Source of the DNA: a virus
Taxonomy: Duplodnaviria; Heunggongvirae; Uroviricota; Caudoviricetes
IMG/VR virus record: IMGVR_UViG_2690316086_000017
DNA length: 8,108 nucleotides
Direction: 5' to 3' (one strand)
Positions within the stretch are counted from its first letter, which is position 1. Each line of letters opens with the position of its first letter. The notes under the pieces are model-generated. The model did not search any database. It saw only the letters and a list, made by a program, of their open reading frames with translations, and was not told where the DNA came from. Shown here piece by piece: positions 4,494 through 4,930 of this stretch. The position numbers were made by a program, and so were the translations under genes.

Positions 4494-4715
4494 TTAATCC
4501 CCGTCCGTTGTTTTTCTTAAAACAGCTTCTGTCACGAAATCAGCATAGTTAGCGGCAATATCAAGAATATTTAGCCCTGTATCTCTGTGCTCATCAGTGC
4601 AAAGAAAGAAAAAAGCCACCCGCATAATTTCAGATATTGACGAAAGCGCATCAGCCGCATCATCAGGAACGCCGGAAAATTCTTGTTTCAGGGAATTAAA
4701 ACGATCATCACGCAT
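4494..4715 (-). CDS. hypothetical protein, 73 aa, possibly the C-terminal part of a frameshifted or phase-variable gene
   Basis: ATG at 4715 lies 2 nt after the G9 tract, which could serve as its RBS. Overlaps the upstream ORF by 28 nt in a different frame. Confidence 0.4.
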   Translation of the reverse strand: MRDDRFNSLKQEFSGVPDDAADALSSISEIMRVAFFFLCTDEHRDTGLNILDIAANYADFVTEAVLRKTTDGD

Positions 4716-4930
4716 AACCCCCCCCCATTTTCACAATCAGCAACAAGAATATTTTTAGCGTCATTCAGCGACCGCGTTGCGATGTATCGGATACATTCCA
4801 GGGCGAACTGTGTCCGGTCTTTCTGTTCTTCTCCCTGCGCAAGCTCTGCAGTGCATTCAATATCGATAAGCGCGTGCATCAGCGTAGTGAGCGCGGCGGC
4901 TGCTGCGTCCGGTGTGGTTTTATTGCACAT
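4688..4930 (-). CDS. hypothetical protein, 80 aa, possibly the N-terminal part of a frameshifted or phase-variable gene
   Basis: ATG at 4930 (I trimmed the track's 4972 start), with AGGAGG 6 nt upstream. Its start overlaps the Icd-like stop as ATGTGCAATAA. The C-terminus ENGGGL is encoded by the G9 tract. Confidence 0.4.
   Translation of the reverse strand: MCNKTTPDAAAAALTTLMHALIDIECTAELAQGEEQKDRTQFALECIRYIATRSLNDAKNILVADCENGGGLCVMIVLIP
4718..4726. repeat. homopolymer C9 (G9 on the coding strand) at the junction of two ORFs
   Basis: Nine consecutive C at 4718-4726, counted directly. Confidence 0.9.

Follow-up and report, generated by a model that had tools for sequence, protein, structure and literature searches.

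A poly-G tract of variable length, probably through replication slippage, at the junction of two small genes in a phage satellite of Escherichia coli

The stretch of DNA analysed here, referred to throughout as the window, comprises 8,108 nucleotides (nt) of the IMG/VR virus record IMGVR_UViG_2690316086_000017 (Caudoviricetes) and is 100% identical to Escherichia coli O26:H11 str. 11368 and to many further complete genomes. At the junction of two small open reading frames (ORFs), orfA and orfB, it carries an uninterrupted run of nine G residues: the + strand reads cataaCCCCCCCCCatttt, and the C9 at positions 4718-4726 corresponds to G9 on the coding (-) strand. When the window was shuffled 200 times with its dinucleotides preserved, a G9/C9 run arose in 6 of the shuffles (mean 0.04 per shuffle). 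In the form that it takes in the window, the upstream ORF, orfA', starts with the ATG at 4930, continues across the tract and ends 27 nt beyond it with the TGA of 4690-4688; it consists of core residues 1-71 and a tail, LCVMIVLIP, that is out of frame over the start of orfB. The downstream ORF, orfB, begins at the ATG of 4715-4713, 2 nt past the tract and in a different frame from orfA', and its product is independent of tract length. A preliminary description of this DNA had reported the G9 tract, the 80-amino-acid (aa) ORF ending 27 nt after it and the 73-aa ORF starting 2 nt after it, and these elements are all present as described; the range that it gave, 4688-4930, covers the upstream ORF and omits the downstream one, orfB at 4494-4715, which belongs to the feature as well. 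Precisely these two coding sequences (CDSs; WP_001342316.1 and WP_001204070.1) are annotated by RefSeq/PGAP in O26:H11 str. 11368, and the exact orfA' sequence is found on at least 1000 public contigs. The coordinates of all features are collected in Table 1.

The length n of the G-run determines how the two ORFs are connected. With n = 8 or 11, two 73-aa genes result that share the start/stop overlap ATGCGTGA (8 nt). The window has the arrangement obtained with n = 9 or 12, in which the TGA within ATGCGTGA is out of frame and the orfA' stop lies instead 25 nt past the orfB AUG, so that orfA is read 27 nt onward and its hydrophobic tail of nine residues replaces 'YA'. With n = 7, 10 or 13, orfA and orfB are fused through a glycine linker into a protein of 144-146 aa. 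A fusion of about 146 aa had been predicted for G10 or G7; the exact fusion proteins do exist, at slightly different sizes, namely 145 aa for G10 (junction ENGGGVMRDD; protein P0001, on 152 contigs, and annotated as WP_000336142.1 in strain 10_253) and 144 aa for G7 (P0014, on 258 contigs). G13 was found in protein P0103, which has a different A allele. The fused G7 form is the one present in O157:H7 and O145, where it is annotated as a single 154-aa protein. Every tract length leaves the orfA core and orfB open, and varies only the orfA C-terminus or the linkage between A and B; no length change acts as the ON/OFF expression switch by which a phase-variable locus is recognized.

Searches with A, B and the fusion gave no match in Pfam, NCBIfam, PADLOC or PDB, and PHROGs returned families of unknown function only. 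Three such families correspond to A, to B and to the fusion, the last one (PHROG 2512, 154 positions) spanning the whole fused protein. An AlphaFold2 model of the fused protein, built with 36 fused homologues, is all-helical (predicted local distance difference test score, pLDDT, 55; predicted template modelling score 0.45), and residues 69-93, which include the linker, are predicted to be disordered (pLDDT <50); the confidence of the model was too low for a meaningful fold search. An internal duplication relating orfA to orfB, hinted at by the similarity of PDAAAAAL to PDDAADAL, was rejected, as BLASTP gave no alignment and hhalign a probability of 1%. In proteins P0074, P0077, P0085 and related ones (217-221 aa), an ORF of about 76 aa upstream of orfA is joined as well (…NAEGY-MCNKTTPD…), which indicates that the fusion of small genes in this operon is not confined to the poly-G junction.

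The G9 in the window is a real variant, widespread among the O26:H11 group. Over 842 nt that include the G9, the window is matched with 100% identity by at least 39 independent complete genomes, and one IMG isolate contig and one metagenome contig likewise carry G9 between identical flanks. Given also the presence of its product on at least 1000 contigs, a homopolymer sequencing or assembly error in the window, which the preliminary description had listed among its explanations, is almost certainly not the case, even if errors of this kind are known at this very site and explain some other assemblies. Variation around this G9 was readily found: an identical 436-nt haplotype with G8 occurs in 23 complete genomes, some of them O26:H11, and over 3730 bp, 2 single-nucleotide polymorphisms and G8 in place of G9 distinguish a metagenome contig from the window. 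When loci were grouped by identical flanks of ±300 nt, 5 of the 16 haplotypes with more than one member were mixed in tract length. As a control, we followed a further 26 homopolymers of the window, each 6-8 nt long; of the 25 recovered in relatives, 22 were without any change, and length changes were confined to one A6 run (3 of 14 loci) and one A8 run (1 of 18).

Switching within a single strain seemed to be indicated for E. coli Nissle 1917, of which the EcN_Sk assembly (L230, NZ_CP172017.1) has G7 and the EcN assembly (L231, NZ_CM187577.1) has G8. The EcN_Sk assembly also shows an A8 run shortened to A7, 225 nt upstream of the tract, and a frameshifted neighbouring gene, and because the nearby A8 run is shortened too, its G7 was rejected as an assembly artefact. 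Errors such as those in EcN_Sk call for caution with any tract census drawn from long-read genomes.

To compare tract length across homologous islands, as the preliminary description had proposed, metagenomes, IMG/VR and GTDB representatives were scanned with the pattern GATTGTGAAAAT-N(5-16)-ATGCGTGATGATCG, which yielded 144 loci; together with seven loci from complete genomes, the set comprised 151 loci. The polymorphism of the tract is directly visible: G8 was found in 64 loci, G9 in 33, G7 in 33, G10 in 6 and G11 in 2, making 138 loci with an uninterrupted run of G7-G11, and the run was interrupted in the remaining 13 (GGGGGTGG, GGGGTGGG, GGGGAGGGGGGG and others). About 50% of the loci are in the two-ORF frame (n = 8/11), about 25% are of the window type (n = 9/12) and about 25% are fused (n = 7/10), and the lengths are distributed around a single mode instead of favouring one frame. 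A spread sample of 44 complete E. coli genomes gave G7 in 18, G8 in 12, G9 in 12, and G10 and G6 in one each. Contigs encoding products of exactly the orfA allele of the window numbered 5 for G6, 258 for G7, at least 1000 each for G8 and G9, 152 for G10 and 47 for G11. Runs shorter than G7 are therefore very rare, with none in the 151 loci, one in the 44 sampled genomes and 5 contigs against at least 1000 with the same allele.

The full A-B junction is present in 657 of 5426 complete E. coli genomes (about 12%), and at least a partial match in 896 of them (about 16%). Carriers include O157:H7 (fused), O26 (split, with G8 or G9) and Nissle 1917. Among GTDB species representatives, the exact 26-nt junction motif was found at one locus only, in Shigella flexneri; in that set it is thus restricted to E. 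coli/Shigella, and the named protein matches are all from E. coli or Enterobacteriaceae.

We sought to learn which of the three arrangements came first from more distant homologues. An exhaustive HMMER search against 1.84 billion cluster representatives yielded only 38 relatives. The distant ones (37-56% identity) are stand-alone proteins: A-like proteins of 72-76 aa that end in ...G[YH]A, and B-like proteins of 75-77 aa whose start is the Met that follows the tract. The A-like gene of L234, a distant locus, has the 3' end CAG GAG GTG GGG CAT GCA TAA with the ATG of the next gene embedded in it, and the junction, CAGGAGGTGGGGCATGCATAA, contains a canonical GGAGGTGGGG Shine-Dalgarno sequence and an 8-nt start/stop overlap (ATGCATAA), that is, the G8 register. 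The occurrence of separate genes in distant relatives and the Shine-Dalgarno sequence in the G8 register of L234 point to two coupled genes as the ancestral layout. Among the interrupted alleles, which should resist slippage, 9 of 13 are in the 8/11 register, and none of the DNA loci has an interrupted allele in the fused register. Judged from these sequence comparisons, the two-gene state with n = 8/11 is ancestral as well as commonest, the G9 of the window is a +1 variant of that register, and the fusion is a -1 or +2 variant. In three IMG/VR loci (L154, L179 and L189; orfB ATG at 2501), the gene upstream of orfB is an unrelated one of about 120-127 aa; the run at that junction is G6, CAGGGGGGTAAACATGCGTGA, and the ATGCGTGA overlap is the same. 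In one locus with that unrelated upstream gene the run is G7 and the upstream stop is shifted. The presence of overlap and G-run behind an unrelated gene suggests that the slippery design is tied to the 5' end of orfB and not to orfA.

These observations bear on the idea, also raised by the preliminary description, that the locus is a frameshifted pseudogene, in which case the true gene would be a single protein of about 145 aa, as in PHROG 2512 and the fused RefSeq CDSs, and the copy in the window would be broken. Fused proteins of 144-155 aa are indeed numerous and diverse, a PHROG family of 154 positions spans the whole fusion, and PGAP calls the fusion a normal CDS in O157:H7 and other strains. 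Split states, however, make up about 75% of the loci, the genes are separate in distant relatives, and a Shine-Dalgarno sequence with a start/stop overlap forms the ancestral junction. The internal Met73 is invariant in 36 aligned fused proteins, with a G-rich ribosome-binding site just upstream of it; split loci show no secondary lesions and have the same ratio of nonsynonymous to synonymous polymorphism (pN/pS) as fused loci; and the linker is predicted to be disordered. With both halves intact and equally constrained in all frames, a broken single gene is highly improbable. The preliminary description had also held that an invariant tract, together with conservation of the two small proteins as separate genes, would speak against its proposal; the small proteins are indeed conserved as separate genes, and tract length is far from invariant.

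The G-run may have functions in the RNA as well. It is the sole Shine-Dalgarno-like sequence before the orfB AUG, and in a predicted hairpin GGGGGGUUA pairs with UAAUUCCCU, which lies in orfB codons 6-9 (-11.7 kcal/mol; 14 of 1000 shuffles were equally stable). The same pairing of the G-run with UUCCC is predicted in the alternative upstream context. The hairpin was obtained by energy prediction alone, and the sequence is too conserved for covariation. A stop overlapping a start, with the Shine-Dalgarno sequence in the 3' end of the upstream gene, is the geometry of a coupled pair; it is present in the G8/G11 register, for which translational coupling is predicted. A scan with Rfam gave no match at the G-run, its only matches being a C4 and an isrK-like RNA upstream.

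A run of this kind could in principle support programmed recoding, in which ribosomal -1/+1 frameshifting or transcriptional slippage would make fusion and split products from any template, and programmed frameshifting was among the possibilities named in the preliminary description. GGGGGGG is formally an X XXY YYZ heptamer on which tRNA-Gly could re-pair in any frame, the predicted hairpin overlaps the site, and near-neutrality of the DNA frame is what frame-blind expression would lead one to expect. Programmed sites, on the other hand, hold frame relation and motif fixed, and here the relation is not conserved among homologues and varies even among close relatives; the predicted hairpin is not placed 5-9 nt downstream of the run but contains it; and a transcriptome-wide study found no slippage of E. 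coli RNA polymerase on G/C runs (PMC5574713). We consider recoding at this junction quite improbable.

As to its dynamics, the tract appears to change often in evolutionary terms. On a tree made by the unweighted pair group method with arithmetic mean (UPGMA) from 600 nt of flanks for 140 loci, parsimony requires at least 50 frame changes, against 60 on average and never fewer than 52 for shuffled states, which indicates that the frame is nearly uncorrelated with flank relatedness. No association of frame with allele type was found either (orfA, p = 0.23; orfB, p = 0.32). Tract discordance arises at about 1-5 substitutions per 2 kb of flank (few pairs), which suggests, as a rough figure, a tract mutation rate between a few hundred and about 2000 times that of the average site. 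With an E. coli mutation rate of about 2e-10 per site and generation, this would correspond, as a rough estimate, to about 1e-7 per generation: a hot spot, well below classical phase variation, for which reversible switching at about 1e-5 or more per generation is the usual criterion. Clones appear stable, and the sampled O157:H7 genomes are uniformly G7. The preliminary description had proposed slipped-strand phase variation; length variation at the DNA level is indeed present (G6-G11 with identical flanks, and G13 on another A allele), but clones such as O157:H7 look fixed. Both ORFs are intact in nearly all loci and in all frames, and the pN/pS of each lies between 0.42 and 0.52 whichever of the three frame classes is considered; nothing here marks the variants as defective. 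Across 45 haplotypes selected by protein similarity, some 130 nt surrounding the tract (from about -45 to about +85 nt, about 4633-4771) form a nearly invariant block, synonymous sites included, and outside this block the rest of orfA and orfB is mosaic and strongly diverged. The block may reflect a recombination junction, constraint at the RNA level, or both.

The explanation that we regard as probable is that replication slips at a G-run which is at the same time the ribosome-binding site of orfB, all three outcomes being tolerated. The run would mark the junction of two small, translationally coupled genes and would serve at once as the C-terminal glycines of orfA, as the likely Shine-Dalgarno sequence of orfB and, probably, as the 5' arm of a hairpin covering the start codon of orfB. 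Being an uninterrupted series of 7-10 G residues, it would gain and lose single G's through replication slippage, and orfB would retain its own start codon and ribosome-binding site in each state. Since all three states are apparently tolerated, tract length would drift, and the constraints from the Shine-Dalgarno sequence, the hairpin and the conserved block might let the run persist without selection for mutability. The junction is most likely near-neutral.

Several points weigh against this interpretation. The tree was built by UPGMA over a mosaic, recombining region, and the pattern used to collect loci fixes 12 + 14 flanking bases. That the states are tolerated is read from ORF integrity and from pN/pS values that are only moderately below 1. 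Some tract variants in long-read assemblies are errors. A 151-nt RNA fold around the tract was not significant (z = -1.55), and the Shine-Dalgarno, hairpin and coupling roles are predictions from sequence and folding energy. Finally, the run is uninterrupted in more than 90% of the diverged haplotypes, even though synonymous Gly codons or GGAGG could take its place, so that selection for mutability could be acting; this last point is tempered by the unusual conservation of the whole block from about -45 to +85 nt and not of the run alone.

The same retention is among the arguments for an adaptive contingency locus, in which stochastic switching between split, tail-extended and fused forms, or of the strength of coupling into the downstream replication genes, would be under selection because it diversifies how the satellite behaves towards helper phages or the host. 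The uninterrupted run is kept in about 91% of the 151 loci, across 109 flank haplotypes with a mean divergence of 25%; the three frames are all common, each on every allele background; runs shorter than G7 are rare; both ORFs are maintained across the states; and poly-G phase variation of rmpA has been reported for another enterobacterium, Klebsiella pneumoniae (10.1101/2025.09.12.675794). Against it stand the lack of an ON/OFF effect, orfB and the orfA core being encoded in every state; the apparently slow switching, roughly 1e-7 per generation; the uniform G7 of O157:H7 and the G8 of all Nissle assemblies save one that is laden with errors; and a unimodal length distribution around 8 with symmetric shoulders (33/64/33), for which length-dependent mutation suffices without selection on the frame. 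Retention of the run can moreover be explained by its Shine-Dalgarno and hairpin roles. We therefore take a contingency locus to be possible and rather unlikely. The more specific proposal that the poly-G is a selected contingency element, whose slippage would rewire the two-protein module and its coupling into the DUF4222 and RepA genes and so diversify the response to, or interference with, helper phages, seems unlikely and is put forward with somewhat greater reserve.

The genomic context identifies the locus, from its gene content, as the early operon (icd-like gene to RepA helicase) of a phage satellite with a P4-type integrase and AlpA, resembling phage-inducible chromosomal islands (PICIs). 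The island lies at tRNA-Pro between yejM and yejO, and all its genes are on the - strand of the window. Within about 8.2 kb it combines an integrase at tRNA-Pro, an AlpA-like helix-turn-helix protein (a weak Pfam match), a RepA-family helicase (assigned via AAA_25), TerS and an HK97-type capsid gene, which together are the features by which satellites are recognized. From the icd-like gene to RepA the operon is compact, neighbouring genes overlapping by 11, 28 and 4 nt or standing 1 and 5 nt apart.

Table 1 Features of the window. Positions are those of the 8,108-nt stretch.
Feature	Position	Strand	Remarks
Integrase gene	6867-8108	-	
AlpA-like regulator gene	6164-6370	-	
icd-like and ash gene remnants		-	in addition to the intact icd-like gene
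isrK-like RNA	5275-5351	-	Rfam RF01394, 66 bits, above gathering score; upstream of icd-like gene
C4-type antisense RNA	5166-5253	-	Rfam RF01695, 77.6 bits, above gathering score; upstream of icd-like gene
icd-like small gene, intact	4920-5111	-	NCBIfam NF033153; stop overlaps orfA start by 11 nt
orfA', 80 aa	4688-4930	-	WP_001342316.1; PHROG 5146 (unknown-function family)
G9 homopolymer	4718-4726	-	codes Gly-Gly-Gly at orfA end; 2 nt upstream of orfB start; Shine-Dalgarno-like
Predicted RNA hairpin	4690-4723	-	GGGGGGUUA pairs UAAUUCCCU, with inner 3-bp stem; encloses G-run and orfB AUG
ATGCGTGA	4708-4715	-	orfB start codon overlapping the TGA that ends orfA in G8/G11 alleles (8-nt overlap)
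orfB, 73 aa (MRDDRFNSLKQEF...)	4494-4715	-	WP_001204070.1; PHROG 24341 (unknown-function family)
77-aa gene	4259-4492	-	start 1 nt past orfB stop; PHROG 2196 (unknown-function family)
DUF4222 gene	3954-4253	-	downstream end of the same operon
RepA-type helicase gene	2557-3957	-	downstream end of the same operon
Three small ORFs, TerS gene, HK97-type capsid gene		-	

Upstream of the operon, the C4 and isrK-like RNAs probably belong to the immunity and regulatory region of the satellite; by sequence, the region looks like an RNA immunity module of the P1/P7 or P4 type placed inside a satellite. A match to the c4-a1b1 target accompanied these two in Rfam and was weak. A 409-aa ORF in the mechanical ORF list (4920-6149, -) covers the matches to these RNAs and the partial icd-like and ash-family pseudogenes annotated by PGAP, and is almost certainly not a gene. 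The island ends just past the capsid-family gene (window 1-927, -; L001 10260-11183), which adjoins a yejO pseudogene; it encodes TerS but lacks genes for a portal, a protease and head completion. One possibility is a capsid-forming PICI that has been truncated; another is a PICI in which TerS and a capsid homologue are the only genes of this kind. Two further G-runs occur in the island, a G7 on the - strand at 1694-1700, near the 5' region of terS, and a G6 at 2533-2538, downstream of the helicase gene. Both keep their run length in the 5 relatives with shared flanks; in single loci, one G of the G6 is replaced by A, or a T is added next to the G7.

Our results describe a genuine poly-G junction that appears to slip recurrently, a further example of a homopolymer whose length decides whether ORFs are fused or split, or which C-terminus is made, in a host (E. 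coli) and on an element (a phage satellite) that are unusual for it. The cj0031/cj0032 locus of Campylobacter jejuni contains an intragenic poly-G/C repeat that fuses and splits ORFs, and organisms of the C. jejuni and Helicobacter type are without mismatch repair of the MutSL type. In Helicobacter canadensis, 'C-terminal sequence switching' has been reported (PMC2823697). The junction described here resembles both in having an uninterrupted G/C run in or between CDSs, in which single-base changes set the joining of ORFs and the C-terminus, and whose length is polymorphic between close relatives. Whereas those species switch at high frequency in culture, it is found in mismatch-repair-proficient E. 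coli with a low inferred rate; in addition, none of its states turns the product off, its run doubles as a predicted ribosome-binding site, and it is carried by a phage satellite.

Two overlapping frames that can yield a short and a fusion product are also known from the programmed frameshifts of the G/GT tail chaperones of phage lambda and of dnaX. In those systems the slippery heptamer and the ratio of the products are conserved and the relation of the frames is fixed, whereas at the present junction the frame relation varies at the DNA level. In the coupled overlapping genes of phage operons (ATGA and similar junctions), as in the G8 register, where the orfA TGA lies within ATGCGTGA, the Shine-Dalgarno sequence is placed in the 3' end of the upstream gene; in orfA, the putative one is G-rich and occupies the last codons. 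The geometry of the window differs in that it is shifted, with the stop 25 nt past the orfB AUG, and in that the putative Shine-Dalgarno sequence is itself a slippery homopolymer. Among E. coli mobile elements, the switching of the O-acetyltransferase NeuO depends on heptanucleotide repeats at the 5' end. Its gene lies on the CUS-3 prophage of E. coli K1, and its phase-variable expression has been reported (PMC3046976). The two loci have the mobile element in common, and clear ON/OFF switching with a known phenotype is a property of NeuO, unlike the present locus. Slipped-strand mispairing at poly-G is the presumed mechanism here as it is for Neisseria hmbR/hpuAB (PMC3786947) and for K. pneumoniae rmpA, the latter indicating (10.1101/2025.09.12.675794) that poly-G mispairing can operate in Enterobacteriaceae. 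In hmbR/hpuAB and rmpA, an out-of-frame length truncates the protein and turns it OFF, whereas every length here leaves both ORFs translatable. A search of the literature for poly-G tracts or phase variation in PICIs and satellites returned nothing specific.

Our findings have consequences for how this locus is described in genomes. Annotation pipelines report it as one, as two or as differently sized 'hypothetical proteins', and three PHROG families represent what is one module, so that recognizing them as length variants of a single junction tidies the annotation. Within otherwise identical islands, the tract offers a fast-evolving marker. The locus is also a natural experiment in which two small satellite proteins tolerate covalent fusion, hinting that they act jointly. 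Should switching prove rapid and matter for the phenotype, the locus would be an unusual instance, among the mobile elements of E. coli, of phase variation driven by a repeat, and if the tract were a contingency element, it would represent bet-hedging based on a simple sequence repeat in a mismatch-repair-proficient enterobacterium, on a satellite rather than in a surface-antigen gene.

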